Shown here in pieces: positions 49,441-64,000 of a DNA stretch of 64,000 nucleotides. Source of the stretch: a virus. The DNA lies in IMG/VR virus record IMGVR_UViG_3300027791_000007, positions 32,001 through 96,000 of that record. The stretch is one strand, 5' to 3'. The notes under the pieces were generated by a model. It saw nothing but the letters and a program-made list of their open reading frames with translations. It was not told the origin of the DNA and did no database searches. The translations under genes were made by a program, and so were the position numbers. Numbering within the stretch: the stretch's first letter is position 1; the number at the start of each line of letters is the position of its first letter.

Positions 49441-50865
49441 TTAAACTTTAAAGGTAGAAAATTTATCGTATTTTTGGTTCTGTCCTTTATCAAATATAGG
49501 TGTATCCTCGTCAATTTCTTGACCACTTTCCACTATGTCTTTCTGTTCGTTTAGATCAACATCACTTAGTTTCATCCTTGACCTATCAACACCTATCACA
49601 AACCTCTTGTTCATTGTAGGATCGTTGTATCGGTTCTTCAATTGTTTGACTACGATTTGGTTTAGTTCTTCAAGTTCTTCTGTAGAAATAAGCGCAAACA
49701 TGAAATCTGCTGTTGCAGGCAACCCAAACGATTCAGATGTATCCTCAAGCCCGACATCTGTTGAGGAGAATCCACTTCTTGTTGTCTGTGTTGCCGACAT
49801 GATTGGTAAATTATTCTCAACGGCAAGTCCTCTAAGTTCTTCTGCAACTGCTTTGATATACATGTAAGAATTGACATTCTGGGCTCCTTTAAACCTTGAC
49901 GATGCACATATATTTAGATAGTCTATAAATATAATATCTGGATTGAATGATTTCTTAATTGCAAGTTCTTTAATCAATCCTCTGAAATGAGCACTATTTG
50001 CACTTGCAGTAGGATATTCTTTAATAATTAACTTACCCTCTGTTTTACTTCGTATCTGTTCTACCTTATCCGTGAACATTGTCTTAGGTAAATCATGTAG
50101 TTCTTCCATAGTAACATTCATTAGGTTTGCATCAATACGTTCTGCAATACGTTCCTCTGCCATCTCTAAGGTGATGTATAATACATTCTTACCTTGTGAT
50201 AAACAGTTTGCAGCCATATGACACATAAACAAAGATTTACCAACACCAGTTCCAGCAAGACATATATTCAAAGTCTTTTGTGGTAAACCACCCTTTGTAA
50301 TCTTGTTAAAGAAGTCTAGGTCAAAAGGAATCTTAATTTCCTTCTTATGGTAAAACTCATATCTTGTTTCTCCATCGTCAAGATAATCGTGTCCTACAGA
50401 TTGGTCAAAACTTACAGCAAGAGCATCTCTCATTATTTCTGGAATTGCTTCTTGTGTTCTATCTCCATCTTTACCATCAATAATTGCAATACCGTCTACG
50501 ATTGCATTATATACTGCTTTATCTTTACAGAACTTTTCTGTAGTATTTACTAACCACTCTAAGTCCACTTCTGTTTCATTTAGATTCTGAATAAGAGCAA
50601 CAACTGATTTGTGTTCTGTATCAGTTAAGTCTCTTCTGTTTTCTAATTCAACTTCTAGAGAAACCTTAGTAGGGCGTTTTTTGTATTTGTCAACAAATTT
50701 GACAATTTCTTCAAATACAACTCTATCTTCTTTTAACTCAAAGTATTTTGGTTTGATGAAAGGAATAACCTTTCTACAAAAATCATCATTCGTTATTAGA
50801 TTCGATAATGTCGTTTTCTCGATTGTGTTGGTCAATTGTTCCATTATTATTTCCTGCTTGTTCAT
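49441..50865 (-). CDS. gp41: replicative helicase gp41
   Basis: LAGTGVGKS, ITLEMAEE, IDYLNIC, SATQTTR, SESFGLPATAD, KQLKNRY. Confidence 0.96.
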   Translation of the reverse strand: MNKQEIIMEQLTNTIEKTTLSNLITNDDFCRKVIPFIKPKYFELKEDRVVFEEIVKFVDKYKKRPTKVSLEVELENRRDLTDTEHKSVVALIQNLNETEVDLEWLVNTTEKFCKDKAVYNAIVDGIAIIDGKDGDRTQEAIPEIMRDALAVSFDQSVGHDYLDDGETRYEFYHKKEIKIPFDLDFFNKITKGGLPQKTLNICLAGTGVGKSLFMCHMAANCLSQGKNVLYITLEMAEERIAERIDANLMNVTMEELHDLPKTMFTDKVEQIRSKTEGKLIIKEYPTASANSAHFRGLIKELAIKKSFNPDIIFIDYLNICASSRFKGAQNVNSYMYIKAVAEELRGLAVENNLPIMSATQTTRSGFSSTDVGLEDTSESFGLPATADFMFALISTEELEELNQIVVKQLKNRYNDPTMNKRFVIGVDRSRMKLSDVDLNEQKDIVESGQEIDEDTPIFDKGQNQKYDKFSTFKV

Positions 50866-51148
50866 CTATAATTTCTACCAGTATGTCACCGATTTGTTTA
50901 AAAAACACTTCGTCAAACTGGGATTTGTCTAAACCATTATTATCTAATATATCATACTCGAAGCGAAAAGTCAAGTCTTTTTTTTCATCTGGTTCTCCTA
51001 AAGTCACTTTTCCGTATTTGTAAACTACACCTTTATACATTCCAGTATTAATACCAATACAAGTTGTGTCTGGATACTTTGGTGAGTTTAAGTAAACATA
51101 TCTCTTTTGATCAATTTTTATTTTTGCAGTTTCTTGTATATCAGACAT
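50786..51148 (-). CDS. hypothetical protein (gp40-like position)
   Basis: Between uvsX and gp41; GVVYKYGKV...F.YDI. Confidence 0.55.
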   Translation of the reverse strand: MSDIQETAKIKIDQKRYVYLNSPKYPDTTCIGINTGMYKGVVYKYGKVTLGEPDEKKDLTFRFEYDILDNNGLDKSQFDEVFFKQIGDILVEIIDEQAGNNNGTIDQHNRENDIIESNNE

Positions 51149-51689
51149 AATGTAAATAACTCCCCACGATATATTTTGGTGTGTCTATTGGTTTTTGTCC
51201 AGCATGTAACCAAGGCCACATTGGTGGAAATATAAGTAAAGAACCTTTCTTACATGGCGAACCTTTATTCATTAGGGGGAATGTTGTCATACCACCTACA
51301 TTGTCATCTAAGTACAAGAAGAATACTAAAAACCTTCTTGCATTTTCATAGTTGTTTACATCTACATGTGCTCTAAATTCATCTTTATCGTTTGGTAGAT
51401 ATCTTTTCATCCTCAAACCTTCAAGTCCATATTTATTAGGCCACATTTCTTTAGTAATACCAGCTTGCATTTTATAATCAGCAACTCTAGATAGAAGTAT
51501 TTTTTGAAGTTTTTCACTATCTTCTTTCCACTCATCATGCTCGTAAAGATGAATTTGTGTAAAGTCAGCAGTGCTTTGTTTAATATCTTCATAACAATTA
51601 CTACTCTTATCAAACTTTTCTTTTAGATAATTACAGTATTCTTCATCAATGACATTATCATGTCGTTTCACAAAACTCATCAAGTCCAT
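51141..51689 (-). CDS. 2OG-Fe(II) oxygenase (prolyl-4-hydroxylase-like)
   Basis: RMKRY, HVD, RFLVFFLYL, GG.T.F, FPP.WPWLH, KYI. Confidence 0.88.
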   Translation of the reverse strand: MDLMSFVKRHDNVIDEEYCNYLKEKFDKSSNCYEDIKQSTADFTQIHLYEHDEWKEDSEKLQKILLSRVADYKMQAGITKEMWPNKYGLEGLRMKRYLPNDKDEFRAHVDVNNYENARRFLVFFLYLDDNVGGMTTFPLMNKGSPCKKGSLLIFPPMWPWLHAGQKPIDTPKYIVGSYLHYV

Positions 51690-52204
51690 TATATCTTCCT
51701 AACTGTAAAATCTATAGCCATTCTTTTGTGGTCTGTTAGTATATCAGAAGCCGCATGTGGAATTGTAGAATCAAATAATGCAAAAGATGTTGGTTTGATA
51801 TAGTTAGAAACACCATCATGTGTAAAACCACCACCCCAACTTTCTTTCCAATCACTATTCACCACACCCAAGATTTTAATTACATTATCTTGTTTATTAT
51901 GGTCAGTGTGGATATTATCTTTTCGATTTTTATCCTTTATAGACAATCCACAAAAATATATTTCAGGCACAAAGAAATCTTTTCCTCCTGCTTCATATAT
52001 TTGTATTAACAACCCCATTGCAATACCAGCAAGTAGTGGATGTTTAGTGTCATCATTATCTATAATATCTAACTTTAGATGTTTTTCATCCAGCGATTTG
52101 CCCATTGGATATTTTAGATTCCAACTGTCATCGTTAGATGCAACATGTTTAATCATATCTAAGTAGAATGGACTACAACAATTATCTAAAATTTTAACCG
52201 CCAT
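51689..52204 (-). CDS. 2OG-Fe(II) oxygenase
   Basis: IHTD, W..SWGG, FDSTIPH, R. Confidence 0.8.
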
Positions 52205-53210
52205 ATTTAAACTCCTTTGAAGCAGCTTCTTCTAGTTTCTCCATAACTTCTTCTGTGAAATATTTCTCTGGATCACCTAAAACAGCTTTACCATATTGTT
52301 TTGTACCATCAGGCATTAAATACCTTGGCCCTTCTTTCTTGAAAACTTCATACTTTTCTGCAAGTTCAATCAATCCGTAATATTTATCTAGTCCAGTACT
52401 ATAACTCAATCTAACATCAACCATTTTGTTTTCAATAGTCAATCTTGATTTGTGATTCTTACAGTGAATAATATTACCGACAACATCTGTACCTTCTTTA
52501 TCTTTTCTTTTAGATAAGAAGATAATTGATGAGGCTGCATACTTCAATCCAGAACCACCACCCATTTCCTTAGTAGGAAACATAGAACCCATAGAGTCAT
52601 ATGTGTGATTTGTTACAATCATTGGGATACCAGCTTTACCAAGTTTCAAAGTCAACACTCTAAATGCAGCCTTAAGAACTTGTGCTCGTGTCATGTCTCT
52701 AGTTTCTTTTCCTGCTTCTGTATCCTCTACTTCCTTTGTAGTAGATAACATACCAAGTGAATCTAAACACATCATCATAGGACGTTTTACATCCACATCT
52801 TGCTGAGAAAATCTATCTGCAATTTTAATCGCTTGTGTTCTAAACTCTTGTACAGTAGTAACTGGCATCATAACCATCCTAGTTGGGTCAATACCCCTAT
52901 CAACTACCATCTGTTTAGTAATAGCACTTTCTGATTCAAAGTAAACTACACCACCATCTGGATTTGCATCCAAAAAGTTCTTTACCATTCCCATCAAAAA
53001 GAATGTCTTACCAGTTGCACTTTCACCAGCAAGAGCAGTAATTTTGTTTGCAGGCAATCCACCATACAAACTACCACTCAATAGTGCATTGAAAATGTAA
53101 CTACCAGTATCTACAAAGTTTTCTACGTCACCAGCGGCAACACCATCGGATACTAAATCAGCATACTCATTTCCAGTTATTTTAATTATGTCTTTTAAAA
53201 AATCATTCAT
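52194..53210 (-). CDS. uvsX: RecA-like recombinase UvsX
   Basis: [37 protein letters not shown]. Confidence 0.96.
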
Positions 53211-53583
53211 AAATCACTCCTTCTAAATTAGGTTCTTCATAATTTGGGCCTTTCATGACCTTACCATCTTTTCGATACATGGGTTGACCATCTTCACCTA
53301 ATTTTGTCATATTAGATCGTTGAACCTCATCAAAACATTTGTCTAAGTCTAATCCAAATGTATGTCCAGCACCATAAACGACATATAAAATATCAGTTAA
53401 TGCATCTGCCACATCTACAAGTGTACCACTTTCGCAAGCTTCTTCTAGTTCATTCAGTTCTTCTCGTATTAAATCAATCCTCAAATCCACTTCTTCATCT
53501 GTTGGCCATTGAGGATTTTCTCGTATTTTCTGCTTGAAAGCAGACATAAAGTTTTCGACTTTGTTAAAGTTTGTTTGATTCAT
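53203..53583 (-). CDS. MazG-like NTP pyrophosphohydrolase
   Basis: [10 protein letters not shown]...[13 protein letters not shown]...SNMTK...[10 protein letters not shown]. Confidence 0.88.
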
Positions 53584-53589
53584 TTGTAG

Positions 53590-53618
53590 ATCCTATCATA
53601 ATTAGCGTTGTTTGTCAA
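53590..53618 (-). promoter_or_regulatory. sigma70-like promoter; leaderless mRNA
   Basis: TTGACA-17-TAGGAT, then 6 nt, then ATG. Confidence 0.6.
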
Positions 53619-54421
53619 GTAAAAAATTCACTTAATGTTGCAACTCCGTGTTTGTCTGCAACTTTATTTACATTACTAGAGTTGTGGTTTGTTACAGTAC
53701 CATCTATAAATGGTAGTGTCTTTGTGAGAGTATATTTTTCTTCGCCTGGTTTCTTTATTTTCCATTGTAAATCAACATCTTTGGGATAATTGATATTCCA
53801 ATCCATAGTGGACTGTTTAAGATACTTCTTAGCCTTTTTATTTAGTGGGTAAATATATCTAAATTGTTTACCCCATACTCTACTAAATCCTAATTCACCC
53901 ATCTTCTTATCACTTGGTCTTGGGCCATACTTAGTATCCATACGATTCATTTCTTTTTTCATCTTTCTTTGGATAGTTCTGAAATGTACCTTTTCACCAG
54001 TTTCACTCAAATATATATCTGTCCAGATGAACCCACCAAATAAGAAGTTAGCGGCCTGATAAACATATCCTGGCTTACCAACAATTCCATCTGCCCATGT
54101 GTAAAGATATTTTATATTAGGTTTATTTTCTTTCAACCATTTAATAGTTAAACTCTGCATTTGTGATTCTGAATTTCTGGGCATCTTATCATCCATACAC
54201 ATCTTACCTATTTCAAAATAATCAGCAGTTGTTAACTCTGGAAACATCTTTCTTATTGTTCCCATAGGGTTCGTACCCCAACCCAAAGTTAGAACACCAA
54301 CCAATTCTTCATCTACATATGTACCAAGATAATGTTTAGTTAGTTTGGGCATCACAGCACTATAGTGTCGTTCTTGAACGAATAGTGTTGCAACTCTCCA
54401 ATCTATAGGTTTAATTATCAC
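53615..54421 (-). CDS. Mom-family (GNAT-fold) DNA modification protein
   Basis: ERHYS...LVGVLTLG...EIGKMC...NSES...TWADG..G.VYQAANF. Confidence 0.75.
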   Translation of the reverse strand: MIIKPIDWRVATLFVQERHYSAVMPKLTKHYLGTYVDEELVGVLTLGWGTNPMGTIRKMFPELTTADYFEIGKMCMDDKMPRNSESQMQSLTIKWLKENKPNIKYLYTWADGIVGKPGYVYQAANFLFGGFIWTDIYLSETGEKVHFRTIQRKMKKEMNRMDTKYGPRPSDKKMGELGFSRVWGKQFRYIYPLNKKAKKYLKQSTMDWNINYPKDVDLQWKIKKPGEEKYTLTKTLPFIDGTVTNHNSSNVNKVADKHGVATLSEFFT

Positions 54422-54861
54422 CCCTTATGTCTCCTCAAATAAGCGGCTCCCGCTTCTAAAACTTCTGGACGATCTAGTGAACGTCCTATCATAATATTAC
54501 AATAGTCACAGATATATTCTCTTGGTGTTTCAGTTTCATGGTCATGATCTAACACCCAAACAGTTTTTGATGTTGCAGACGATAATCCTTGAAATGCACC
54601 TCTACCTCTGATATATTCTTCATTGTCATTACAAATACCACACTTATGATCCGACTCTGGTTTAGCTATTTCTTTTCTAACTTTATTAAGAATTTTTGTT
54701 TGGTGATTATTACACACTTTACAAATATTCTTAGTTTCTCTTGAACCATCTTTTCTGTGTCCTCTGTTTGCAAAGAGGTCTAAATGTTTTACCTCTTTAC
54801 AAGAATAACACATCTTTGTATGCTCAACTTCTTCTGGGCCCCATAATGTTTGAATAATCAT
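54418..54861 (-). CDS. endonuclease VII-like (beta-beta-alpha-metal) nuclease
   Basis: CYSC...CKVC, CGIC, VLDHDHET...R.YICDYCN..IG. Confidence 0.8.
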   Translation of the reverse strand: MIIQTLWGPEEVEHTKMCYSCKEVKHLDLFANRGHRKDGSRETKNICKVCNNHQTKILNKVRKEIAKPESDHKCGICNDNEEYIRGRGAFQGLSSATSKTVWVLDHDHETETPREYICDYCNIMIGRSLDRPEVLEAGAAYLRRHKG

Positions 54862-55625
54862 ATTGGTAACTTTCCAACTTGACTATCTGTATACATTTTC
54901 TTCCACTTGATTTTAATCTTCTTGAAATCTCCACCCATAACATTCTCTTTAATGCCATTCCATGATACATGGTTAGGATACATCTCAATAAGTTTTGCAT
55001 GAGTATCATTAATTAAATCTAAAGTTCTCCATTCGTTACATCCACCCTCAACTAGAATCTTAGAAATATAACCAAACTCATCCCATATACGATTTGTATG
55101 TCCTTTTTCAAACAACTGTAATACCATATGAATATCTTCACATACTGGTAATGACCAATCTAGTTTTGTCTCATCAGGCATTTTATTACCATTGAAAAAG
55201 AAACCACAGTTTACAGCAGCGATATCAATAAATGGTTTTCCTGCTGGTGGTAGATTACCTTGACGAAAACCAGCGAAATCAACTTCATCTAACCATCGAC
55301 TAGTTTCTGATAACATATAATCCCAATCCTTAGCGTCCATAAATCTTTTAGATTTTTCTTTACCAGGCGTTCTACGAATGAATTTTAAGTCATCGTCAAA
55401 CACTCCGTATTTGATATTCATAGATTTCATATATATCCAGCGCCTAGTCTCCGTGATCCCAATATCATCATCAGGCAAAACCATTATGGGATAATTTGGG
55501 TATAAATGTTTTTCCTTCGGTTGCACTACAAGAGTAGTAATAGATTGTGTAGGGCCTGACAAATTATCAAAAGTAATTTGGTTGTGAGATCGGCCTAAGG
55601 TCGGTATATAAATCTGATCTATCAT
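54858..55625 (-). CDS. GT-A glycosyltransferase (TAGT/GREB1-like)
   Basis: IYIPTLGRS, GITETR.WI, VFDDDL, CEDIH, GGC...R. Confidence 0.8.
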   Translation of the reverse strand: MIDQIYIPTLGRSHNQITFDNLSGPTQSITTLVVQPKEKHLYPNYPIMVLPDDDIGITETRRWIYMKSMNIKYGVFDDDLKFIRRTPGKEKSKRFMDAKDWDYMLSETSRWLDEVDFAGFRQGNLPPAGKPFIDIAAVNCGFFFNGNKMPDETKLDWSLPVCEDIHMVLQLFEKGHTNRIWDEFGYISKILVEGGCNEWRTLDLINDTHAKLIEMYPNHVSWNGIKENVMGGDFKKIKIKWKKMYTDSQVGKLPI

Positions 55626-56608
55626 ATCGCAGTGTCCATTCTATTTGTAAATTCGTGATAGTAAGCGTCCAGAGATAACAATACTTGTTTGTAGTTGTTT
55701 CTATATTCTTCTAACTTACTGTTAAAGAAATCTTCATCTCTTAATTGTAAAATCTTTTCTTCTAGTTCTTCAAACTCTTGTACTCGTTGCCATTCATCAA
55801 TTCTGTATGTATTATTCTTATCATAGTCTCTCCATACAAATGGCACCATTCCAATTGAAAGTGCTTCTGGATACCTACTAGTTGTGGCATATGGGTCAAT
55901 CCAGTTAAAACAAAGTGTACTTCTTGCTGGTTCTAACATTGGATATAATTGTTTCCAATCTTTAATCCATGCGGCTTGTCGTTTTACCCCACTAGGAAAA
56001 CCACCCACCATTACAGTAGATAGTTGTGAACGATAGATTTTACGAATTGTTTTCTCTCTATCGTTACCATGTTTCATACGACCCCAGTAGGCCCAATCAA
56101 CAGTTTTACCTTCACTCATCATATCATAAAGAGGATTTTTTAAAGTCTGAATAAAATGATATTTCATACCGTGGATATTTCCACTAAAATCTATTTCATC
56201 TATCGTAGTAAATCTTGTAATTGTAGTACCCTTTAAAGTATGCACTCTATACAACTCTTCTGTGTCACCCCTATCTGAACGAAACATAATCACCTTTTTA
56301 TCTCTAAAGAACGGGCGAATAGTTTCCATATGACTTTCAGACTTTGCAAGGTCTTTTGGATTCATCTGTAACTCACCATGATACCTAAACTCTGAATCAC
56401 TAGGTATGACAATTACATCGGCCCACTCAATATTCTCTGGTGTTCGTTTGGGTCTACTTTCATCAAACGATACGTTATATGTTCTGTATTCATGTTGTGG
56501 GTTTGCTTTCATCCACTTGACATAGTTTTCAAAGAAACTATCTAGGACAGTTTCTAATGGGCCATTATACTTTACGTTACTTCGTAATCTTGCAATTGTT
56601 ATTTTCAT
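55622..56608 (-). CDS. DNA beta-glucosyltransferase-like (GT-B)
   Basis: DWAYWG...GNDRE, TTSRYPEAL....FVWRDYD and RVQEFEELEEKILQL parallel the T4 BGT C-terminal domain as I recall it. Confidence 0.65.
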   Translation of the reverse strand: MKITIARLRSNVKYNGPLETVLDSFFENYVKWMKANPQHEYRTYNVSFDESRPKRTPENIEWADVIVIPSDSEFRYHGELQMNPKDLAKSESHMETIRPFFRDKKVIMFRSDRGDTEELYRVHTLKGTTITRFTTIDEIDFSGNIHGMKYHFIQTLKNPLYDMMSEGKTVDWAYWGRMKHGNDREKTIRKIYRSQLSTVMVGGFPSGVKRQAAWIKDWKQLYPMLEPARSTLCFNWIDPYATTSRYPEALSIGMVPFVWRDYDKNNTYRIDEWQRVQEFEELEEKILQLRDEDFFNSKLEEYRNNYKQVLLSLDAYYHEFTNRMDTAI

Positions 56609-57819
56609 TACATATCTTCTAAAGAGTTTTTGATCTTATATTCTAATGAAATCACCTCTACATTAAAACCCTTAGGCGCAATCCAAAACTCAATGTCATC
56701 CATCACCTTAGGCAACCACTTCTTGTTCCACTCTTGCATGGTCTTCCAATTGGGATGGGTGATGTAAATAGTTGCATACTTCTTCTTTGACTTTGCCTTT
56801 ACAAGTAACTTTAACTCATCTTGTAACGAATGTAAGTTAAACTTTCCAGATGAAGCGTGCATTGAAATTGAATCCTTATCAGTAGCATTTTCAAGAATAG
56901 TAGCTAATTCAGACTTGTATAGTGACCACTTCTTCCAAATCCAACCATCAGGCAACTTATCATTTAGAGTAATCGTTGTCTGTGCCTTATTGATAATCCA
57001 GTTGATTTGTCTTGTGCTCCAATTCATATCTTCCAAGTATTTAATATTATCTGTTGAGTCGGCCGGAACACCTTTCTTATTAAATGCAGCAACAATCCAT
57101 GCTACTTGGTCGTCTGGATGACCAACCTTTGTAGCCTTTTTCTGCTGAGGATTTAACAGATTAGCAAGAATTTGTAACTGTGTGACATCAAACTGATTCC
57201 AAATCTTCTTTGAGATATACATAACTGGCACCTTAATTACATGAGAAACCCTCTTTGCGGCCGCAGTAGTGTGATTACCATCAAGAATGATATCATCACC
57301 ATTCTTTCCATATCCCTTTAATACAATAATTGGATCAAAACTATCAATCTTTCCATGTAAGTCAATCATAGCATCTGCAAGAACTCCAACATGATTAGTG
57401 TCAGTATTTTCTACCCTTGTCTGATACCTCGCAAGTTCAGTAATTATTGACTTCTCAATCAACTCAATAGGTAATTCCTTAGTCTTAATCATTTGAGATA
57501 ATTCCCTCAATTCTAAATTCTTACCTACTGTCTTGAGGTACTTACCACCACCATTTGACTTGTTGTAGTATTCTTCATTGTTGTTCGCATCTACTTCTAA
57601 TAACATATTTCTCTCCAATGTCGCCATATTAATTTTAGTTCCTTGTTTCACAATCTTGTATTCATTATCACCCTCAGCAAAATCTTCCATGAAAATAGGA
57701 CACTTACTTGAATGAATATAATTAGAAATAGTTTCTCCTTTTTTTAAAACATGATAACCAATATACTTCTTTCCAGTTCCATTAACTGTGATTTCGTAAA
57801 CATAAGCTTCTTGATTCAT
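56608..57819 (-). CDS. GIY-YIG-like plus ParB-like domain protein
   Basis: AYVY...KYIGYH...LE...YYN; YQTR...PIIV...ILDGNHT; own promoter. Confidence 0.6.
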   Translation of the reverse strand: MNQEAYVYEITVNGTGKKYIGYHVLKKGETISNYIHSSKCPIFMEDFAEGDNEYKIVKQGTKINMATLERNMLLEVDANNNEEYYNKSNGGGKYLKTVGKNLELRELSQMIKTKELPIELIEKSIITELARYQTRVENTDTNHVGVLADAMIDLHGKIDSFDPIIVLKGYGKNGDDIILDGNHTTAAAKRVSHVIKVPVMYISKKIWNQFDVTQLQILANLLNPQQKKATKVGHPDDQVAWIVAAFNKKGVPADSTDNIKYLEDMNWSTRQINWIINKAQTTITLNDKLPDGWIWKKWSLYKSELATILENATDKDSISMHASSGKFNLHSLQDELKLLVKAKSKKKYATIYITHPNWKTMQEWNKKWLPKVMDDIEFWIAPKGFNVEVISLEYKIKNSLEDM

Positions 57820-57851
57820 ATTTTTTCTTTCTCTTGATTGTTTATACTAAT

Positions 57852-57880
57852 AGTATAACAGCCAAAAGTGCATTTGTCAA
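57852..57880 (-). promoter_or_regulatory. sigma70-like early promoter
   Basis: TTGACA-17-TATACT. Confidence 0.75.
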
Positions 57881-57953
57881 GTAGGGCAAAAATCTCCAGT
57901 AAAAACAAAGACTTAAATTTAACGTAAAATTTGTGTTTTAGCACAACTGCGAA

Positions 57954-59066
57954 TCACCTTATTATATCAATCTTATCCATAGTATCTTTATTCCAGACTT
58001 CAAGTTCTTTTCTTAACTTGTCCTCTCTAATCATTTTAGTGTATCTTTTAGTAGAAAGCTTCTTCCACCACTGTACTACATTTTCAAGTTCAAATCTATC
58101 ATAGTTTTCTGCTTTTGTCAAGGTATTTGTTTCACCTAGTAAAACATTTCTTGCATTTTCATATCCATATGTTGACATATAAAATCTTTTCTGTGTGGTC
58201 ACTTCTCCTGCTTTATTCATTGCATCTGTAAATAACTGATAGGCCTTTGAGTCATGTTGTTTTAATGATGCCTTAACCGTTCCCACCATCTTGGTCTGCA
58301 TCTTTAACTTTCTTGAACTTGCACCTTTATGTATTAGGTCTTCACCACCGTTTCTTTCAGTAAACCAATCTCTCATCTCCATATAGATTTCTTCTCCAAG
58401 TGTCAATAGAAACTTAGATTGAGTATCACCTTTGTATCTTAGATATGGGCGCATACCATCATACATACTACCACCTTTGATATTACCATAAAGACTTGTA
58501 GTTTCAAATAGACAGAACTTTGTATTATACTTCTTATTCAACATACGTCTAGTTGCATGAGAACAACAAATAGCTGCAAGTAACTTACCACCAAGATAAT
58601 TATACCCAAATGGTTGTGCAGGCACAATATTAAATCCCATGATAGCACGTTTGTTAAAGATATCTAAATCTGGAACACCACCAAGAAAATCATTTCTAGG
58701 TTTAGAGTTAATTAGTGGACTACCATAACGTATAAATCCTACAATAGTATTTGTAGTTGTTTCCTTAACAACTAGTTTCAAAGTCTTGCCTGGGTTTTCA
58801 TCTGGACTGAATGATGCAGTCTTTTCTAATAGTGTATCATATACCTTGTTTGGTATTTCTACAACTTGAAAGTTCATATCCTCTGGATGCATATCAAAGT
58901 CTTGAAACAAATCATCTTCAATTGACATGCCAGGCAGTGGTGACGGAATATCTTTAACTCTTTCAATCTTTCTTACACGAAAGTAATCATCAATGCGATT
59001 AAAATCTTTGAAGTATTTCATCAATTTTGTAGCAGCGTATATTGAGTCTTGTCTGTCTAGTATCAT
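57954..59066 (-). CDS. DUF4338/DruA-like GNAT-related protein
   Basis: IVGFIRYGSP..NSKPRN...GFNIVPAQPFGYNYLGGKLLA...FETTSLYG...SMYDG. Confidence 0.7.
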   Translation of the reverse strand: MILDRQDSIYAATKLMKYFKDFNRIDDYFRVRKIERVKDIPSPLPGMSIEDDLFQDFDMHPEDMNFQVVEIPNKVYDTLLEKTASFSPDENPGKTLKLVVKETTTNTIVGFIRYGSPLINSKPRNDFLGGVPDLDIFNKRAIMGFNIVPAQPFGYNYLGGKLLAAICCSHATRRMLNKKYNTKFCLFETTSLYGNIKGGSMYDGMRPYLRYKGDTQSKFLLTLGEEIYMEMRDWFTERNGGEDLIHKGASSRKLKMQTKMVGTVKASLKQHDSKAYQLFTDAMNKAGEVTTQKRFYMSTYGYENARNVLLGETNTLTKAENYDRFELENVVQWWKKLSTKRYTKMIREDKLRKELEVWNKDTMDKIDIIR

Positions 59067-61549
59067 AGAAAATCCATTAAGTTACCTTGTTGGCCATATG
59101 TGCGATCCACTGTCCATTTAAGTTTGGACACAATAAAGTTTAGTGGTTCAACAAATGACTTTTCAAATTGTTGTTCATAATCAATCATACTCTGTAATCC
59201 AAACTCATCAGGCATTTTTGTAATGAATGAAATAGAACTTGATTGGTGAGCATTTGGTATTCGTAAGTGCAAGAATTTAATCTTATCCCCTTCTTGAATG
59301 TATGGGTATTTGTTTACTAGTTTCTTTTGTTTGAGAAGATGGTTGTATAGAATTGCTCCCTTACAATGAATAGGGGCTCCTTTAGCAAATAGGGAACTAG
59401 GATCACTCCATTTCGTCAAACCGTTTACACTTCTAGGATATGCAATCATCTCTGCTGGCATGTTCATAAACTCTTCTCTAAAGTCTCGTATAAACTTATT
59501 TAGCATTTTCTCATCACCACTCATGATGATTTTCAAACCTTCTTTAATTTTGTTTCTACAAGGTTCTGGCGTAGAAGATTTTACTGCTTCAATACCCATA
59601 ATCTTTAGTTTAGGTTCTTGATAACGAACACCCTCATTATCCCACACATTAAGAATATATCGTTTCTTAGCAGTCCATATACCCTTGTCAGCGATGACTT
59701 CTCTTGACATCTCCATCTTCTGTTGGTATGCTTTCATGTAAGTAGCGAGTTCTTCATAACATGAACTGATATATGGTTCTATCTTATCCTTTGCAATGCT
59801 GTCTAGAAAATCAATTGGACTAGATGGATTAAACTTTTCTACCAAAGAACCGAATGTAACATAGATGGAATCTGTATCAGAAGCAACCACATAATCTTGA
59901 TTATCAGTTTTGAGTAAATTGTTCATATAACTATTAATCTTGTTTTCAATCCAACGAATAGATAATTGTCCAGAAGTTGTAACAGCCTCTGCCATTGCAA
60001 GGGAGTAGTATCTGAAATACTGATTACCGATAGCACCATAAGCACTGTTCAATGCAATCTTTCTTGCCATCTGAATATTATCATACTTAGAAATCTTTTT
60101 AAGTAGTTTTGGTTCTTTGGTATCTTCATATTCTTGTTTTGCCTGTAACATCTTCTTCTTGAATACGACACGATCATTGTACATGTTTTCCATCAACTCT
60201 GGAAGAAAACCTTTTGTATCTGTTCTGAACAATGCACCGTTTGGTGTCATAGTGGTATCTTTGAAAATAGATGTATCAACTTCCTTGTTTAGAAGTTTGT
60301 CCACCTTCATACCTTTTACCGTATCCAGAGATTTTAATGTTTCTGGGGAAATATTATATTGCATCATTAAGTGTGGATACAAAGAGTTCAAGTCAAAAGA
60401 CATAATCCATTTATGTTCACCGACTATAGGGTCTTTGACATATGCACCCTCAAACTTCTCTGCCTTTTCTGAATGACGTTTCTGTGGAATTACAATATTC
60501 TTTTTCTTTAGATAATTGTAAATCAGAACATCCCAATATTTAACCGAACCAAGAACATCCATGTAATTAACTTTGGCTTCATATGCCATAGTCAAACACA
60601 ATTCAATAAGTCTCATCTTATCTTCAATACGATCAACTAGTTCCACATCAAGAATGTTATAGTCAATAAAAGATTGAAAGTCTTTTGTATACCACTCACT
60701 GAAAGTTTCATATGGATTTGTATCTTTCTTTTGTCCAAGTTCTACATATGCGATATGAGTAAGTGCATATGACTCTTGACTTGTGTATGTAAACTTGTGA
60801 TATAAGTCCAAGTAATCCAAGTGAGCAACACCTCTAATATCGTAGAGTTGATGATTCCTACCATTTCTGAAAACTTCTTTATCTTGAACCATACGCCATG
60901 GTGATAATCTTTTTAGTTCATCCTCACCAAACAAGTTCTTCATACGATTACATAGATAAGGAATATCAAAAAATTCTGTATTCCAACCAGTGATAATATC
61001 TGGTGGGCTGTTTTCCCAAAAGATAAGAAACTCTTTAAGTAAATGTATTTCACTCTCACATTCAATGTAAGTTACATCGTCACGACTATTAGTATATTTA
61101 CCAACACCCCAAACAATAATTTGTTTGTTAGAATGGTTCTTTAAAGTAATTGATAGAAAAGGTTCTGCAGCCTCTTGTGGATTAGGAAACCCATTCTCAC
61201 ATTTAACCTCAATGTCAATAGTGTATATTAGAATCTGATCTAAATCCCAATTGACATCATTAGGATATTCTTCTGAAAGATAAGTATATGGATATTGGTT
61301 TAACCCCAATACCAACGATTTTTGATTCTCGTATGATTTTTGCCACTCTTTCGCATCTTTGATATTATCAAATTTGATTGGGGCAGCATTCTTGCCAGTA
61401 AGAGTTTTGAAACCGCTTACCTTTTCGCAGGGCGTGTACAAAGTTGGTTGGTATTTAACCTTACGAACTTGTCGTTTGCCGTTTACAACTTCTCTTAGAA
61501 AAAGTTGGTTTCCCCACTGTAAAATATTTGTGTAAAAGTTTATCATCAT
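59063..61549 (-). CDS. gp43: family B DNA polymerase gp43
   Basis: DIEV, GWNTEFFDIPY, SFDLNSLYP, KIALNSAYG, ASDTDS, KKRY. Confidence 0.97.
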   Translation of the reverse strand: MMINFYTNILQWGNQLFLREVVNGKRQVRKVKYQPTLYTPCEKVSGFKTLTGKNAAPIKFDNIKDAKEWQKSYENQKSLVLGLNQYPYTYLSEEYPNDVNWDLDQILIYTIDIEVKCENGFPNPQEAAEPFLSITLKNHSNKQIIVWGVGKYTNSRDDVTYIECESEIHLLKEFLIFWENSPPDIITGWNTEFFDIPYLCNRMKNLFGEDELKRLSPWRMVQDKEVFRNGRNHQLYDIRGVAHLDYLDLYHKFTYTSQESYALTHIAYVELGQKKDTNPYETFSEWYTKDFQSFIDYNILDVELVDRIEDKMRLIELCLTMAYEAKVNYMDVLGSVKYWDVLIYNYLKKKNIVIPQKRHSEKAEKFEGAYVKDPIVGEHKWIMSFDLNSLYPHLMMQYNISPETLKSLDTVKGMKVDKLLNKEVDTSIFKDTTMTPNGALFRTDTKGFLPELMENMYNDRVVFKKKMLQAKQEYEDTKEPKLLKKISKYDNIQMARKIALNSAYGAIGNQYFRYYSLAMAEAVTTSGQLSIRWIENKINSYMNNLLKTDNQDYVVASDTDSIYVTFGSLVEKFNPSSPIDFLDSIAKDKIEPYISSCYEELATYMKAYQQKMEMSREVIADKGIWTAKKRYILNVWDNEGVRYQEPKLKIMGIEAVKSSTPEPCRNKIKEGLKIIMSGDEKMLNKFIRDFREEFMNMPAEMIAYPRSVNGLTKWSDPSSLFAKGAPIHCKGAILYNHLLKQKKLVNKYPYIQEGDKIKFLHLRIPNAHQSSSISFITKMPDEFGLQSMIDYEQQFEKSFVEPLNFIVSKLKWTVDRTYGQQGNLMDFL

Positions 61550-61554
61550 GTTCC

Positions 61555-61583
61555 ATTGTATAGTAAATTGTTGGCATTGTCAA
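61555..61583 (-). promoter_or_regulatory. sigma70-like promoter; leaderless gp43 mRNA
   Basis: TTGACA-17-TACAAT, then GGAAC-ATG-ATG. Confidence 0.65.
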
Positions 61584-61588
61584 GTCTT

Positions 61589-61837
61589 TTATTCAAATAA
61601 TTCTATTTGTTTTTTCTTGTTAACTGGTTTCATTGGGAAATAAATATTAATCATTTCTAGTCTATCATGTGCGGCAGATAGTTTATCTAGTTCAGCCATA
61701 ACTGCTTCTGTTACATCTGAATGCTCTCCAATTCCTGCCGGCATTGTTTGATACACTGCAATATTTGCCTTGTGAACTTCAATTTGTCCTTCTGCATGTT
61801 TTTTTGCAGCAAAAATAATTTGTTCGCCTACTTTCAT
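61589..61837 (-). CDS. conserved hypothetical protein
   Basis: HKANI.VY...PAGIGEHSDV.EA...EL. Confidence 0.75.
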   Translation of the reverse strand: MKVGEQIIFAAKKHAEGQIEVHKANIAVYQTMPAGIGEHSDVTEAVMAELDKLSAAHDRLEMINIYFPMKPVNKKKQIELFE

Positions 61838-63306
61838 TTTGTACTCCTTTTATTGAGTTTTTGGGGTAAATCGTCCTCATCTGTTTTATCGCCTCTTTCA
61901 ATCCAATCGGATAGAACGAATCTCCTATTTGGATTGACACTTACTTGAAACAAAGTCATAATATCTCTGTTAGCAAGAAAAGTACTTCTTGAATCTTTTT
62001 CAGTAAGTCCTATTGGTACATCTAAATATTTTCTATTATTAAATGTTATGTTTACGTTAACAATAGGTCTTTCATCTATTTTTCCAACATGTTCTGGTTT
62101 GGAAACACCTTGTAAGGCACTTGTAAATTTCTTTCCGTCTTTTTCCCACTTAACTGTTCTGCCGTTAATATCTACTTTGTCAACAACAAACATTGATGCA
62201 TGTGTTCCATTTCCAGTATCGAACTTTGCTCTTAGTGGGCCGTAACCATCTATTTCAATTCTTTCTACATATCCAGATTCAGTAGGAAATGAATGTCTAC
62301 GATTATTTGGTATCATAATAAACTCTAATAACTTTTCTACAATCTTAGATGGATTTGCATCACCAATATATGCATTGTTGTCTGATTCTGTATCAGTAGC
62401 ATCATACAATGCAAAATTAGAACCAATACCAGCAGAACCATTACACTCTAAAACGTAAACATCTCCACTTACAATAGCATGGTCAACACCAACAACATAT
62501 GCACCAACTGAACGAGATGCCCTTAGAATCACTTCTCTTTCTCTATCATTCAATTTATATGGTTCTGTTGTAGCACCTCTATGTCTATTAGACCTAAAAT
62601 CTTTCTTTGCAGAAATCCTCTTTGTTGATGCTAGTATTTTACCACCAACTACAATTGTTCTTATATCACTATCGAATTTAAAATATTCTTGAATTAAAAG
62701 TTCAGCACCAAATTTCCATAATGACTGAACATTAGAAACTAAACTCTCGTAATCTTTAGCAATAGAAACACCAATACCTTGTGTACCAGTAATTGTTTTA
62801 ATGATAACTGGAAACTTACCACCAATTCTTTTTAATCCATCTTCTAGAGACTTTTCATTTGAAACTATTGATGTTCTAGGAGTCGGTATACTGTTTCTTT
62901 CAAAAGATAAGAACGCTGACATTTTATTATCACATGTCAACATACCTTCTCTATTGTTAATCATAAACGAACCAGACTTCTCAAAAGATGTTAGTAGTGC
63001 GAGTCCGATTTCATCTTCTAAAACTCCAGCACGAACAAAACACACAGTCTTTCTAGTGTTAAATTCTACATCATTATCGTTACCATCAAAATTAGATACT
63101 GTTATTATTCCAGTTTCTAAATCATTAGCAGCGATCCATGCATCTCTAACATTAATGATGTGACATTTAATATTACGTTTTTCGCAAGCTTTCTGTAAAA
63201 GATTGCTTACTAGTTCTGGTTTTTTAGATTTAACTTTGGTTAGAATTGCTACTTCAATATCAGTGTCAACTTTGGCCTCAGTAAAAAAATCGGCAAATTT
63301 TTCCAT
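61834..63306 (-). CDS. rimK: RimK-family ATP-grasp ligase fused to a retropepsin-like aspartic protease
   Basis: CDNK, FPVIIK..GTQGIGV, LIQEY, DIR, DFRSN, GVD, VLECN; C-terminal AKFDTGN...FLANR. Confidence 0.85.
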   Translation of the reverse strand: MEKFADFFTEAKVDTDIEVAILTKVKSKKPELVSNLLQKACEKRNIKCHIINVRDAWIAANDLETGIITVSNFDGNDNDVEFNTRKTVCFVRAGVLEDEIGLALLTSFEKSGSFMINNREGMLTCDNKMSAFLSFERNSIPTPRTSIVSNEKSLEDGLKRIGGKFPVIIKTITGTQGIGVSIAKDYESLVSNVQSLWKFGAELLIQEYFKFDSDIRTIVVGGKILASTKRISAKKDFRSNRHRGATTEPYKLNDREREVILRASRSVGAYVVGVDHAIVSGDVYVLECNGSAGIGSNFALYDATDTESDNNAYIGDANPSKIVEKLLEFIMIPNNRRHSFPTESGYVERIEIDGYGPLRAKFDTGNGTHASMFVVDKVDINGRTVKWEKDGKKFTSALQGVSKPEHVGKIDERPIVNVNITFNNRKYLDVPIGLTEKDSRSTFLANRDIMTLFQVSVNPNRRFVLSDWIERGDKTDEDDLPQKLNKRSTK

Positions 63307-63323
63307 ACACCATCTCCAAGGCT

Positions 63324-63755
63324 TTATATTTCTTTAGTTTCTTCTTTTTTCTTTCCAATATTATATTTTGTCTCTAAAACCCACTCATTCTTTTCTTTGA
63401 ATGAAATGATTTTGATTTGACTCAATGGTGTTATTGGTTCAGCCTCACCCTTTAGTGTTACCAGACCCCAATCACTTAATAGTTTACCGATTGTATTACG
63501 TCTTGCAACATCATTCTCACTTAAATTAGTTTCCTTACCATCTAGGGCAAAGAGTTCTTTAAAGTGAACTAAGTAATATTTACCTTGTTTATGTAGTATG
63601 TGGCAAGATTGATAGAGTTTCCTATCTTTTCTACTTGCAACACCAATTCTGGATAATGTCTCTCTCACTTTTAGAAAATCATCCGGCTCTTTTAAGACGA
63701 TTTCTAACATATCGTCTTGCTTCCAATTCAGTTTAACCTCTTCCATTTTTTCCAC
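63324..63755 (-). CDS. regA: translational repressor RegA
   Basis: DDFLKVRETLSRIGVAS...LYQSCHILHKQG.YY.VHFKELF.LDG. Confidence 0.96.
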   Translation of the reverse strand: MEKMEEVKLNWKQDDMLEIVLKEPDDFLKVRETLSRIGVASRKDRKLYQSCHILHKQGKYYLVHFKELFALDGKETNLSENDVARRNTIGKLLSDWGLVTLKGEAEPITPLSQIKIISFKEKNEWVLETKYNIGKKKEETKEI

Positions 63756-64000
63756 CTTTATTCAAACTATCTTTAATAGTCTTTATCTGTTCATCATTAA
63801 GTATACTTAGAGCGGACTTTGCCTTTTCATTACTATATCCATAATACTCTTTTACATACTCTAGATCTTTAAGTTTACTTGCTTTCAACCAAGGATTAAA
63901 TCGTTTCCTTGGTCTTAGACTATTTAGTAAAAAGTCAAACTGCAACTTATTGTCTAGGTGATGTTGACGGTTCATCTCATTTGCGAGATGTATGGTTTCT
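63733..64000 (-). CDS. gp62: clamp loader small subunit gp62 (5' part outside the window)
   Basis: ANEMN...LQFDFLLNSLRPRKRF..W...VKEYYGYS.EKA...L. Confidence 0.9.
   Translation of the reverse strand, partial: ETIHLANEMNRQHHLDNKLQFDFLLNSLRPRKRFNPWLKASKLKDLEYVKEYYGYSNEKAKSALSILNDEQIKTIKDSLNKGGKNGRG

Follow-up and report, generated by a model that had tools for sequence, protein, structure and literature searches.

Among described phage systems, phages of the SP-15-like group carry glycosylated thymidine hypermodifications (PMC13697223), the Mom protein of phage Mu marks adenine N6 using glycyl-tRNA (PMC13219725), and T4 possesses two DNA glucosyltransferases, the beta-glucosyltransferase (BGT) and AGT. 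We analysed a 64,000-nucleotide window from the genome of an uncultured marine T4-like phage, in which a module between the gp43 and uvsX genes combines BGT-like, TAGT, Mom and DruA-type proteins. Because these proteins occur together and no hydroxymethyl-base enzyme was found with them, the DNA of this phage is probably decorated by an undescribed route. Judged from sequences and structural models, the locus appears to be a credible variant of phage DNA hypermodification, which partly supports an earlier note that had read the interval as a candidate new pathway.

Organization of the gp43-uvsX interval

The gene order given in the earlier note is real, and all genes are on the minus strand. 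In the direction of transcription, the features are as follows.

61583-61555, minus: sigma70-like site TTGACA-17-TACAAT by gp43 (consensus match)
59063-61549, minus: gp43, family-B DNA polymerase (PF00136, E 9e-31; PF03104; phrog_262, E 0); upstream anchor, outside the module
57954-59066, minus: DruA/DUF4338-like GNAT, 370 aa (PF14236, E 1e-4; phrog_19197, E 6e-155)
57852-57880, minus: sigma70-like early promoter candidate TTGACA-17-TATACT (11/12 consensus positions; consensus match only)
56608-57819, minus: putative GIY-YIG and ParB-like nuclease, 403 aa (no family passes)
55622-56608, minus: BGT-like GT-B glycosyltransferase, 328 aa (structure and family profile)
54858-55625, minus: TAGT-family glycosyltransferase, 255 aa (PF20691, E 5e-15; phrog_842, E 1e-20)
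54418-54861, minus: EndoVII/HNH-type nuclease, 147 aa (PF02945, E 8.5e-11, 42 bits)
53615-54421, minus: Mom-family GNAT, 268 aa (PF25680, E 8e-51; PDB 8bv8, E 2e-19)
53203-53583, minus: MazG/HisE-type all-alpha NTP pyrophosphohydrolase, 126 aa (PF01503, E 2e-22; phrog_671, E 2e-41)
52194-53210, minus: UvsX recombinase (phrog_97, E 2e-93); downstream anchor
51689-52204, minus: 2OG-Fe(II) oxygenase-like protein (weak, 16.9 bits)
51141-51689, minus: 2OG-Fe(II) oxygenase-like protein (PF13640, 28.8 bits, passes)

The DruA-like gene is coupled to gp43 as had been noticed, its ATG overlapping the gp43 stop codon as ATGA. Neighbouring genes overlap by 1 to 11 nt throughout the stretch that starts with the 403-aa gene and ends with the second oxygenase gene, as with the GTG start of Mom and the EndoVII stop; the one exception is a 31-nt gap between Mom and MazG. 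The promoter candidate lies within the 134-bp gap preceding the 403-aa gene; the count of sigma70-like sites across the region shows no excess over shuffles. The late motif TATAAATA is absent from 50000-64000. The sigma70-like sites, the tight coupling with replication genes and the lack of TATAAATA suggest that the island might be transcribed early. Compared with Pelagibacter phage HTVC008M, the island is inserted between the DruA-like gene, which follows gp43, and uvsX; only a 73-codon ORF separates these two genes in HTVC008M.

TAGT, Mom, EndoVII and MazG all exceed curated cut-offs, and the previous calls of TAGT and Mom hold. TAGT scores 56 bits against PF20691 (cut-off 27.5), its translation contains the acidic motif FDDD, and the matched phrog_842 is annotated as 'beta-glucosyl-HMC-alpha-glucosyltransferase'. 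The EndoVII-like protein has a Cys-rich N-terminal stretch and, being the sole PF02945 gene product of the contig, may simply be a gp49-type resolvase; the roles once proposed for it in discriminating unmodified DNA, and for MazG in sanitising the nucleotide pool, gained no support. As for the two 2OG-Fe(II) oxygenases reported after uvsX, the assignment stands for 51141-51689 and is only weak for 51689-52204. The pair gave no informative match in the PDB and none to TET/JBP, and the two genes, coupled to uvsX, possibly encode hydroxylases.

The 403-aa protein contains a DGNHT motif, and its family has the invariant residues Y6, Y8, Y19, G21, E69, N81 and G181-N182-H183. SegE_GIY-YIG was matched weakly by 9 of 21 members (best E 0.002), and the named language-model clusters nearest to residues 105-300 are ParB_N (score 0.91). 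We treat the GIY-YIG and ParB-like nuclease assignment as a lead only.

A remote homologue of T4 beta-glucosyltransferase

Pfam, PF09198 included, and PHROG gave no match for the 328-aa protein. Its AF2 model (pLDDT 93.7) retrieved T4 BGT and AGT as the top matches in Foldseek. With VIA, the model aligned to T4 BGT (1qkj) with a Z-score of 19.2 over 296 residues (rmsd 3.6), to T4 AGT with Z 16.1 and to other GT-B enzymes with Z of at most 15.2, so that BGT leads generic GT-B enzymes by about 4 Z units. BGT was also the sole PDB match of the family profile (E 6.6e-4), in which T243/R245/E248 align with T267/R269/E272 of BGT and the R-x-x-E motif is kept. In the ESM Atlas, the nearest named clusters carry PF09198 (TM 0.72). 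Fold and profile identify the protein as a true remote homologue of BGT, and the structural comparison proposed in the earlier note supports its beta-glucosyltransferase-like call.

Among its homologues, one (P0208) is a fusion of the BGT-like domain with ParB_N and an N6_N4 DNA methylase (41.8 bits), and another, in locus L107, lies beside a PolA-UDG fusion, an AP endonuclease and a methylase-like gene, the PolA-UDG fusion being the architecture that defines SP-15-like polymerases. Both the fusion and the SP-15-like locus suggest that the enzyme acts on DNA. The HTVC008M homologue is coupled to gp46. Some distant homologues adjoin PALP-type or radical-SAM enzymes with no GNAT.

Both glycosyltransferases might instead have a target other than DNA, be it glycans of the host envelope, a protein of virion or host, or a small molecule. 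A survey of pelagimyophages read phage glycosyltransferases as modifiers of the host surface (O-chain) and notes that restriction systems are rare in SAR11 (PMC7029224). Moreover, lipid, teichoic-acid and protein glycosyltransferases are among the GT-B enzymes at Z 13-15 to our model, in 21 loci the gene is preceded by one for a TagD-like cytidylyltransferase, an enzyme characteristic of polyol-phosphate and heptose pathways, and the genome carries a gene for an NAD-dependent sugar epimerase/dehydratase. We nevertheless consider a non-DNA target distinctly improbable, because the closest structures are the two T4 DNA glucosyltransferases, which include the only PDB match at the sequence level, because family members are fused to the ParB-DNA-methylase and embedded in replication and repair loci, and because all lineages examined have the gene among gp43, uvsX, gp41 or gp46. 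Most pelagimyophage glycosyltransferases, unlike the BGT-like gene, are found in the tail-fibre hypervariable region (PMC7029224).

A conserved core with variable companions

In pelagimyophage-type contigs, the DruA-like and BGT-like genes are conserved as a pair. Wherever gp43 lies, fewer than 700 bp separate the end of the DruA-like gene from the BGT-like gene downstream of it in 65 of 77 loci; in L004-L007 the pair is far from gp43, between the tail-tube and gp23 genes. Wherever a contig extends far enough upstream, TAGT is found downstream of the BGT-like gene, namely in 18 of the 19 loci with a whole TAGT gene. Only the closest relatives have Mom, MazG and EndoVII, and in them MazG travels with Mom; in L064, gp43 and the DruA-like gene flank MazG, and EndoVII is not at this position in L032, L111, L112 and L117. 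The 403-aa protein often accompanies the pair but is divergent, its identity to proteins encoded beside the BGT-like gene in other contigs being 26-67%. The carriers are nested: HTVC008M (gp122) and Synechococcus phages also have the DruA-like gene (the Phold preprint is one source for this), a subset of its carriers has the BGT-like gene, and a subset of those has TAGT. In the phage collection, HTVC008M is the only record, and the only cultured phage, with the BGT-like gene, although Synechococcus phages have the DruA-like gene, and the pair is not obligate.

A variable slot within or beside the pair holds the TagD-like gene (directly upstream of the BGT-like gene; PF01467, E 2e-18), a GT1-family transferase, or a GmrSD_N-like protein with a C-terminal His-rich stretch (HNH-like by eye), a pattern of a tailoring cluster. 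The cassette is composite, with the DruA-like and BGT-like genes as the conserved core and TAGT as an optional add-on, and the eight genes do not form the single co-inherited pathway that had been envisaged.

This variability could also mean that no pathway exists and that the interval is an accessory-gene hot spot, in which Mom alone modifies DNA, each glycosyltransferase serves a target of its own, perhaps unrelated to the other's, the nuclease genes encode homing endonucleases or a resolvase, and the DruA-like protein is an anti-defence or protein-acylating factor. The interval content indeed differs widely among relatives, down to the short ORF of HTVC008M, Mom occurs alone in Melnitz, and EndoVII comes and goes among near-identical cassettes. 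GIY-YIG proteins of T4-type phages are, in addition, typically mobile Seg enzymes. However, the DruA-like and BGT-like genes stay adjacent even far from gp43 and also, in HTVC008M, when the partner is another DruA paralogue; TAGT depends on a BGT-like gene being present, and ATGA-type coupling joins the genes. These points make this combined account rather improbable in our view.

The DruA-like protein is 54% identical to HTVC008M gp122 and scores 22 bits against PF14236, under the 27-bit cut-off. The paralogue in HTVC008M matches PF14236 with E 5.5e-18 and has a BGT-like copy two genes away. The AF2 model of the DruA-like protein (pLDDT 77.7) has a GNAT fold and aligns to 5ix3 with Z 8.2 and to Mom (8bv8) with Z 8.1 over 160 residues. 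Comparison with Mom thus revealed a shared fold and no specific similarity, as hhalign gave a probability of 0.2% and Mom ranked 32nd among viral models; we rejected a Mom-like assignment in favour of a generic GNAT.

Source of the acceptor

The absence of a thymidylate-synthase-like hydroxymethylase from the window was confirmed, with no match to PF00303. Extending the search to the 148,443-bp contig revealed no match to PF00303 (ThyA/gp42), PF12851 (TET/JBP) or PF00145 (C5-methylase). In HTVC008M (complete genome) and four or five relatives, among them G001 (95% complete), neither PF00303 nor PF12851 was found, and forty other proteins that were scanned included no such acceptor-making enzyme. 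Since the contig is 84% complete according to CheckV and ends inside a gene, the enzyme might be missing from the assembly here, and it is excluded only for HTVC008M. Mom, restricted to the closest relatives, cannot make the glycosyltransferase acceptor in most carriers. The candidate acceptors are a side chain made by a GNAT and a hydroxyl made by an oxygenase, GNAT-type proteins and an oxygenase being the sources that the earlier note had named.

The oxygenase could act without the DruA-like protein, if a 2OG-Fe(II)/cupin enzyme made a hydroxymethyl-pyrimidine-type hydroxyl (5-hmU or 5-hmC, as in base J) after replication. TAGT by definition belongs to the TET-associated glycosyltransferase family (PF20691), in HTVC008M the glycosyltransferase and the second DruA gene flank a JmjC/cupin gene (E 1.8e-7), an Asp/Arg hydroxylase directly follows the glycosyltransferase-ParB-methylase fusion, an oxygenase follows TAGT in L024-L028, and the contig carries at least six 2OG-type genes, the two coupled to uvsX among them. 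Yet Tet_JBP has no match in the contig or six relatives, the local oxygenases fall in PF13640 (2OG-FeII_Oxy_3) and not in PF12851, and the contig has no C5-methylase to supply 5mC. Such oxygenases are also scattered through this genome, as they are through cyanophage genomes without the glycosyltransferase, so that their adjacency to it is weak evidence. We regard this route as unlikely.

Proposed pathway and comparison with known systems

The explanation that we favour, with about an even chance of being correct, is a composite early DNA-modification island with the DruA-like GNAT and the BGT-homologous GT-B enzyme as its core, placing sugar onto DNA at an acceptor formed without a ThyA-type enzyme. 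The GT-B enzyme would transfer the sugar from a nucleotide-activated donor to phage DNA after replication. Its acceptor would not be a ThyA-type hydroxymethyl-pyrimidine; the likeliest candidate is a side chain or hydroxyl that the adjacent GNAT, perhaps helped by a hydroxylase, would add to a canonical base. The GIY-YIG/ParB-like protein could be a nuclease that either spares modified DNA or is mobile, and the EndoVII-like protein may be another.

Restriction-type palindromes are strongly avoided in the genome (GATC, 213 versus 608 expected; GAATTC, 0 versus 36; GGWCC, 2 versus 56), which speaks against wholesale base replacement as in T4. Mom in this lineage might mark adenine N6 independently; compared with Mu Mom, Ser124 is kept as S86, whereas Arg111 is replaced by Lys73, invariant across the marine Mom clade, and Arg151 by Ile113. 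The succession of a BGT-like and a TAGT enzyme parallels the two-sugar logic of T2 and T6, and TAGT might, like the T2/T6 enzyme, then attach the second sugar.

A replication-linked gene cassette

The contig from which the window is drawn (bases 32001–96000) is 148,443 bp long with a G+C content of 34.8%, and is 84% complete by CheckV, its end falling within a long open reading frame. DNA similarity places it among T4-like Kyanoviridae that infect marine heterotrophs; its closest isolates are Pelagibacter phage HTVC008M and OM43 phage Melnitz. All genes named in the earlier note were recovered on the minus strand of the same sequence and in the order given there, beginning with gp43 and with uvsX lying between the MazG-like and oxygenase genes (window coordinates):

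57954–59066, minus strand: DruA-like protein, 370 aa
56608–57819, minus strand: 403-aa protein
55622–56608, minus strand: 328-aa protein, BGT-like
54858–55625, minus strand: TAGT, 255 aa
54418–54861, minus strand: EndoVII-like protein
53615–54421, minus strand: Mom
53203–53583, minus strand: MazG-like protein
51689–52204, minus strand: oxygenase
51141–51689, minus strand: oxygenase

Curated thresholds were passed by gp43, TAGT, EndoVII, Mom, MazG/HisE, UvsX and the second oxygenase (PF13640, 28.8 bits), the first oxygenase being a weak match (16.9 bits). NCBIfam matched none of the cassette proteins, and PDB sequence searches were empty for TAGT, for the profiles of the 403-aa family and the DruA-like protein, and for both oxygenases.

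The DruA-like gene is joined to gp43 by an ATGA overlap, and overlaps of the ATGA, GTGA or TAATG type occur at the junctions from the 403-aa gene through the second oxygenase, with the exception of a 31-nt gap before MazG. The 134-bp gap upstream of the 403-aa gene contains a TTGACA-17-TATACT site (consensus match only), and a motif scan of the window found no late motif TATAAATA between positions 50000 and 64000. Judged from these consensus matches, the cassette looks like an early operon. Over the entire window, the same T4 late-promoter motif is enriched, with 16 sites against 8.7 expected, a number reached in no shuffle. We also observed a RimK-type ATP-grasp ligase of 490 aa (window 61834–63306; PF08443, E 3e-35) between regA and gp43, its gene being separated from gp43 by an 82-codon ORF.

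The 328-aa protein is a remote homologue of T4 beta-glucosyltransferase

The 328-aa protein had no match in Pfam, PHROG or NCBIfam, and PF09198 had no match anywhere in the contig at E-values up to 10. Its AlphaFold model (pLDDT 93.7, from a 42-sequence alignment) nevertheless shows a compact two-domain GT-B fold with T4 beta-glucosyltransferase (BGT) as the nearest structure. Foldseek ranked BGT top and T4 alpha-glucosyltransferase (AGT) second, and VIA-align superposed the model on BGT (1qkj) with a Z-score of 19.2 and an r.m.s.d. of 3.6 for 296 residues at 15% identity, compared with Z-scores of 16.1 for AGT and at most 15.2 for the remaining GT-B enzymes. When the family profile was searched against all PDB sequences, BGT was the sole match (E 6.6e-4), and T243-x-R245-x-x-E248 was aligned to BGT T267, R269 and E272, which we take to be the residues holding UDP in the BGT structures. 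With E248 invariant and R245 conserved in at least 90% of the family, the nucleotide-sugar-binding R-x-x-E motif (BGT Arg269/Glu272) is retained. The nearly invariant D115 is only a candidate for the equivalent of the catalytic base, BGT Asp100. In the ESM Atlas, the named clusters nearest to the protein carry PF09198 (TM 0.72). The BGT-like assignment made from the sequence alone is thus borne out by both fold and profile: the protein is a genuine but remote BGT homologue, outside the family in the Pfam sense.

Among the 918 homologues found by our search, some lie in contexts linked to DNA. An 808-aa fusion protein (P0208, locus L105:5651–9932) joins the BGT-like domain to ParB_N and an N6/N4 DNA methylase, and is followed downstream by an Asp/Arg beta-hydroxylase and a short PALP-type enzyme. 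In locus L104, too, the BGT-like gene is followed by a PALP gene, which is homologous to that of L105 (34% identity); the present contig has no homologue of this partner. Another homologue, in locus L107, has a methylase-like gene on one side and a 2-hydroxyacid-dehydrogenase/radical-SAM fusion on the other; adjoining are a fused PolA-UDG gene and a gene for an AP endonuclease. The PolA-UDG architecture is a mark of the SP-15/YerA41 group, phages with glycosylated thymidine hypermodifications in their DNA (PMC13697223). A further homologue, P0140, sits on a 1.7-kb contig that offers no gene context. The ParB-DNA methylase fusion and the replication-locus contexts suggest, indirectly, that this family might transfer sugars to DNA. 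The glycosyltransferases could instead have non-DNA targets, as those of pelagimyophages have been read as host-surface enzymes (PMC7029224); we regard this explanation as very unlikely.

The DruA-like protein has a GNAT fold

We know of no biochemical function for DruA, and the name therefore predicts nothing for the phage protein. The DUF4338-like call of the earlier note holds in that the match to PF14236 is real and the fold is that of a GNAT, although the score remains below the gathering cut-off (22 versus 27 bits, E 1e-4). When the AlphaFold model (pLDDT 77.7) was compared with the PDB, the best 50 matches were nearly all GNAT-superfamily acyltransferases (Z-scores 6.6–8.2), with Foldseek probabilities of up to 0.98 for GNAT matches. 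Mu Mom (8bv8) shares first place among them and has the longest alignment, a tie that reflects the common GNAT fold. Comparison of the DruA-like profile with the marine Mom profile by hhalign indicated no relation (probability 0.2%), and among viral models the top matches were uncharacterised giant-virus proteins, with Mom in 32nd place. We therefore dropped the label "Mom-like" for this protein, which is a GNAT but not specifically similar to Mom. DUF4338, as found in DruA of Druantia type I, has independently been termed a GNAT domain (PMC10853773), and the Phold preprint spotted the DruA-like family in Synechococcus phages by structure (10.1101/2025.08.05.668817). Complex prediction for the DruA-like and 328-aa proteins gave a score of 0.01, which is uninformative either way.

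Mom, TAGT and the accessory proteins

Database searches upheld the Mom, TAGT, EndoVII-like and MazG calls. Mom matched PF25680 with 173 bits (cut-off 27.1, E 8e-51) and Mu Mom (8bv8) with an E-value of 2e-19. The catalytic Ser124 of Mu Mom corresponds to S86 of the phage protein, where 17 marine homologues have Ser or Thr; Mu numbering was inferred through the S124A crystal chain of 8bv8 (offset +9). The equivalents of His58 and Tyr59 are also retained, and Lys116 aligns with Mu Arg154. At two other positions, the marine proteins depart from Mu: Arg111 is replaced by Lys73, a Lys invariant across the 17 homologues, and Arg151 by Ile113, with Ile or Leu fixed in the clade. Mu Mom transfers glycine from Gly-tRNA(Gly) to adenine N6, producing N6-carbamoylmethyl-adenine, and its R111K variant is drastically impaired and R151A dead (PMC13219725). 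Because of the fixed replacements at these two positions, the marine clade may differ from Mu Mom in donor or target. Marine metagenomes contain approximately 1,700 homologues of the phage Mom, on contigs of up to 218 kb.

TAGT, a family name that reportedly comes from Iyer et al. 2013, scored 56.4 bits against PF20691 (cut-off 27.5) and 56.7 bits in the genome search. The TET/JBP association typical of TAGT was not found, the search with PF12851 having come back empty for the contig and for six relatives, among them the complete HTVC008M, a 95%-complete genome and partial ones. In 21 loci, the gene immediately ahead of the BGT-like gene encodes a TagD-like cytidylyltransferase (PF01467, E 2e-18) and mostly lies between the DruA-like and BGT-like genes, a hint that those lineages use a donor other than a UDP-sugar. 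TagD has no homologue in this contig, and the donor here is therefore likely a host nucleotide-sugar. The TagD/RfaE-type protein is about 130 aa long with an HxGH motif (L019:7615–8004, L067:7609–8004, L072:7594–8004 and 18 more loci), and its gene is ATGA-coupled to the BGT-like gene in L019, L067, L072, L079 and L080, the five loci read through. An NAD-dependent sugar epimerase/dehydratase (PF01370, E 7e-26) lies at 18405–19181 of the contig (G000:C1; L093:2405–3181) and could tailor a nucleotide-sugar donor.

The 403-aa protein had no match in Pfam, PHROG or NCBIfam. Its GIY-YIG assignment rests on repeated SegE_GIY-YIG matches in 9 of 21 family members (best E 0.002, all below cut-off) and on conserved motif positions (YxY...YIG, E69 and N81, with no invariant Arg). 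The ParB-like assignment is a lead only, from a DGNHT motif and from language-model neighbours (23 of the 30 nearest named clusters are ParB_N, score 0.91); Pfam and PDB profile searches gave no hit to ParB_N or GmrSD_N (PF02195, DUF262). The same slot is occupied in two other loci (L010:6526–8004 and L019:9233–10528) by a GmrSD_N (DUF262)-like protein (492 aa; E 2e-5, below threshold) with a His-rich C-terminal stretch that appears HNH-like by eye. The EndoVII-like protein (PF02945, 42.1 versus 23.6 bits) is the sole PF02945 member in the contig, and close relatives do without it at this position; it may serve as a resolvase, a homing enzyme or a discriminating nuclease. MazG/HisE scored 79.9 bits against PF01503 (cut-off 21.3), with the acidic motif EELNELEE in its translation.

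The cassette is composite

The earlier note read the cassette as a candidate DNA hypermodification pathway. Its BGT-like, TAGT and Mom components and the lack of gp42 stand, but the genes are not co-inherited as one unit. In HTVC008M, only a 73-codon ORF lies between the DruA-like gp122 and uvsX, and positions 53203–57819 are therefore an insertion relative to that phage. Mom, MazG and EndoVII are confined to the nearest relatives, with Mom alone in Melnitz. The distribution is nested, from DruA-like (HTVC008M, Synechococcus phages) through BGT-like and TAGT to Mom and MazG. This nesting fits a stepwise pathway for the DruA-like, BGT-like and TAGT enzymes, and shows Mom to be an independent addition.

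Of 97 related IMG/VR loci, 77 have enough flank, and in 65 of these fewer than 700 bp separate the end of the DruA-like gene from the BGT-like gene downstream. Our locus sets were seeded with a single protein and so favour close relatives; some contigs in them are duplicates, and the counts 65/77 and 28/66 are approximate. The two genes stay adjacent even when relocated between the tail-tube and gp23 genes, yet the pair is not obligate, since Synechococcus phages carry only the DruA-like gene. HTVC008M, the one cultured carrier in the phage collection, encodes a BGT-like protein with 40% identity (gp104, coupled to gp46), and two genes further a second DruA paralogue, gp106, which passes the PF14236 threshold (65.6 bits, E 5.5e-18; L097:7028–8711). 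Between them lies the 175-aa JmjC/cupin-like gp105, of which this contig has no homologue. Two DruA paralogues also occur in the contig of locus L067 (G002). Close TAGT relatives have a BGT-like gene upstream in 18 of 19 whole-gene loci, wherever the upstream DNA suffices, and a GT1-family transferase lies near the pair in 9 loci. We read the surroundings of the pair as a hot spot of tailoring genes. Unrelated genes might have simply collected in this hot spot, an explanation that we consider decidedly unlikely alongside the conserved adjacency of the pair.

The acceptor of the sugar

No match to PF00303 (ThyA/gp42), PF12851 (TET/JBP) or PF00145 (C5-methylase) was found in the 84%-complete contig, so that the lack of gp42 noted for the window extends to the contig; PF00303 was also not found in the complete HTVC008M or in four relatives. 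With no gp42/ThyA-type enzyme detected in the contig, and no gp1-type kinase among 40 other proteins scanned, the acceptor cannot, on this evidence, be 5-hydroxymethylcytosine made before replication. Since the known acceptor routes were not detected, any modification must be post-replicative on canonical bases, or be made by a type of enzyme not yet linked to DNA.

The contig encodes ThyX, ribonucleotide reductase, several radical-SAM enzymes and at least six 2OG-type oxygenases. One of the oxygenases could make the acceptor hydroxyl; with the TET/JBP family not found, we judge this route unlikely. ThyX, commonly encoded by cyanophages, was considered as a hidden hydroxymethylase and rejected, being an ordinary strong PF02511 match (162 bits) with no supporting evidence. 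Just ahead of the window, in locus L093 (G000:C1:20760–28660), three radical-SAM and three pentapeptide-repeat genes surround thyX, and further radical-SAM genes lie at C1:14344–15408 and at window 12843–14036.

Restriction-type palindromes are strongly avoided in the contig compared with the maximal-order Markov expectation: GATC occurs 213 times (608 expected), TCGA 124 (263), GAATTC 0 (36), GGTACC 0 (17) and GGWCC 2 (56), with GGCC over-represented. T4-style complete base replacement is unlikely for this reason, and a partial or motif-specific mark fits better.

A possible new route to glycosylated DNA

All well-understood phage DNA glycosylation, to our knowledge, starts from a hydroxymethyl-pyrimidine, formed either before replication by ThyA-type enzymes or after replication by TET/JBP enzymes. 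Here, a BGT relative and TAGT are present without a detected enzyme of either type, and the complete HTVC008M genome likewise has a BGT relative without either route. Either the acceptor chemistry is new, or the BGT-like and TAGT enzymes have left DNA. Our preferred reading, to which we give an even chance, is a post-replicative DNA-glycosylation module with a DruA-type GNAT and a BGT-derived transferase at its core; TAGT would extend this core, and Mom would be an independent companion.

A more specific proposal, which we hold to be doubtful, is that SAR11-type myophages, including the cultured HTVC008M, make a new class of DNA base by GNAT, hydroxylase and BGT-derived steps. Following replication, the DruA-type GNAT would act as Mom does and place an acyl or aminoacyl side chain on an exocyclic amine of a canonical base. 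A cupin/2OG hydroxylase might add a hydroxyl to this side chain, and the BGT-derived enzyme would O-glycosylate the chain. In particular lineages, the pathway might be extended by TAGT, by a GT1-family enzyme or through a donor that the TagD-like enzyme activates with CDP. If true, the proposal would assign a biochemical function to the DruA family of Druantia defence for the first time, and would offer a handle on the role of DruA-type GNATs in Druantia. The carriers rank with the most abundant of the large marine phages, and given the abundance of the 328-aa and Mom homologues, the modification could affect marine virome sequencing, enzymatic cutting and the defence of SAR11-type hosts.

Comparison with known systems

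In the T4 gene 42 and BGT/AGT system (BGT being CAZy GT63, PF09198), BGT has the same compact GT-B fold as the 328-aa protein, and the 328-aa gene likewise lies among replication and recombination genes and is apparently early. The two proteins are only about 15% identical, however, PF09198 gives no match, and unlike T4, this phage has neither a detected gp42/ThyA-type enzyme nor a gp1-type dNMP kinase among 40 other proteins. The 255-aa TAGT matches phrog_842, the beta-glucosyl-HMC-alpha-glucosyltransferase of T2/T6, and its gene here also follows the BGT-like gene, as expected of a second-sugar enzyme; only some of the phages with the BGT-like gene have it, and it differs from T2/T6 and TAGT systems by the lack of a detected TET/JBP partner or hydroxymethylcytosine route.

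With Mu Mom, the phage protein shares strong family membership (PF25680, 8bv8) and the Ser124 equivalent, whereas its gene is found among apparently early rather than late genes and adjoins glycosyltransferases. Druantia type I DruA (DUF4338, PF14236) and the phage protein have in common a weak PF14236 match and the GNAT fold, but the phage score is below the gathering threshold, and the phage gene is coupled to a DNA polymerase and flanked by replication genes. Proteins of the accessory slot may pair a putative ParB-superfamily domain with a putative nuclease, an arrangement known from type IV restriction enzymes of the GmrSD kind (DUF262/ParB-like N domain and nuclease); the domain calls in the slot are sub-threshold, and its proteins are phage-encoded and adjoin modifying enzymes. 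In SP-15-type phages, modification begins with 5-hmdU and the polymerase belongs to family A, whereas this phage is T4-like, with a polymerase of family B and no detected ThyA-type hydroxymethylase; what it might share with SP-15, YerA41 and Carin-5 is the concept of a linker placed on the base and then glycosylated (PMC13697223).
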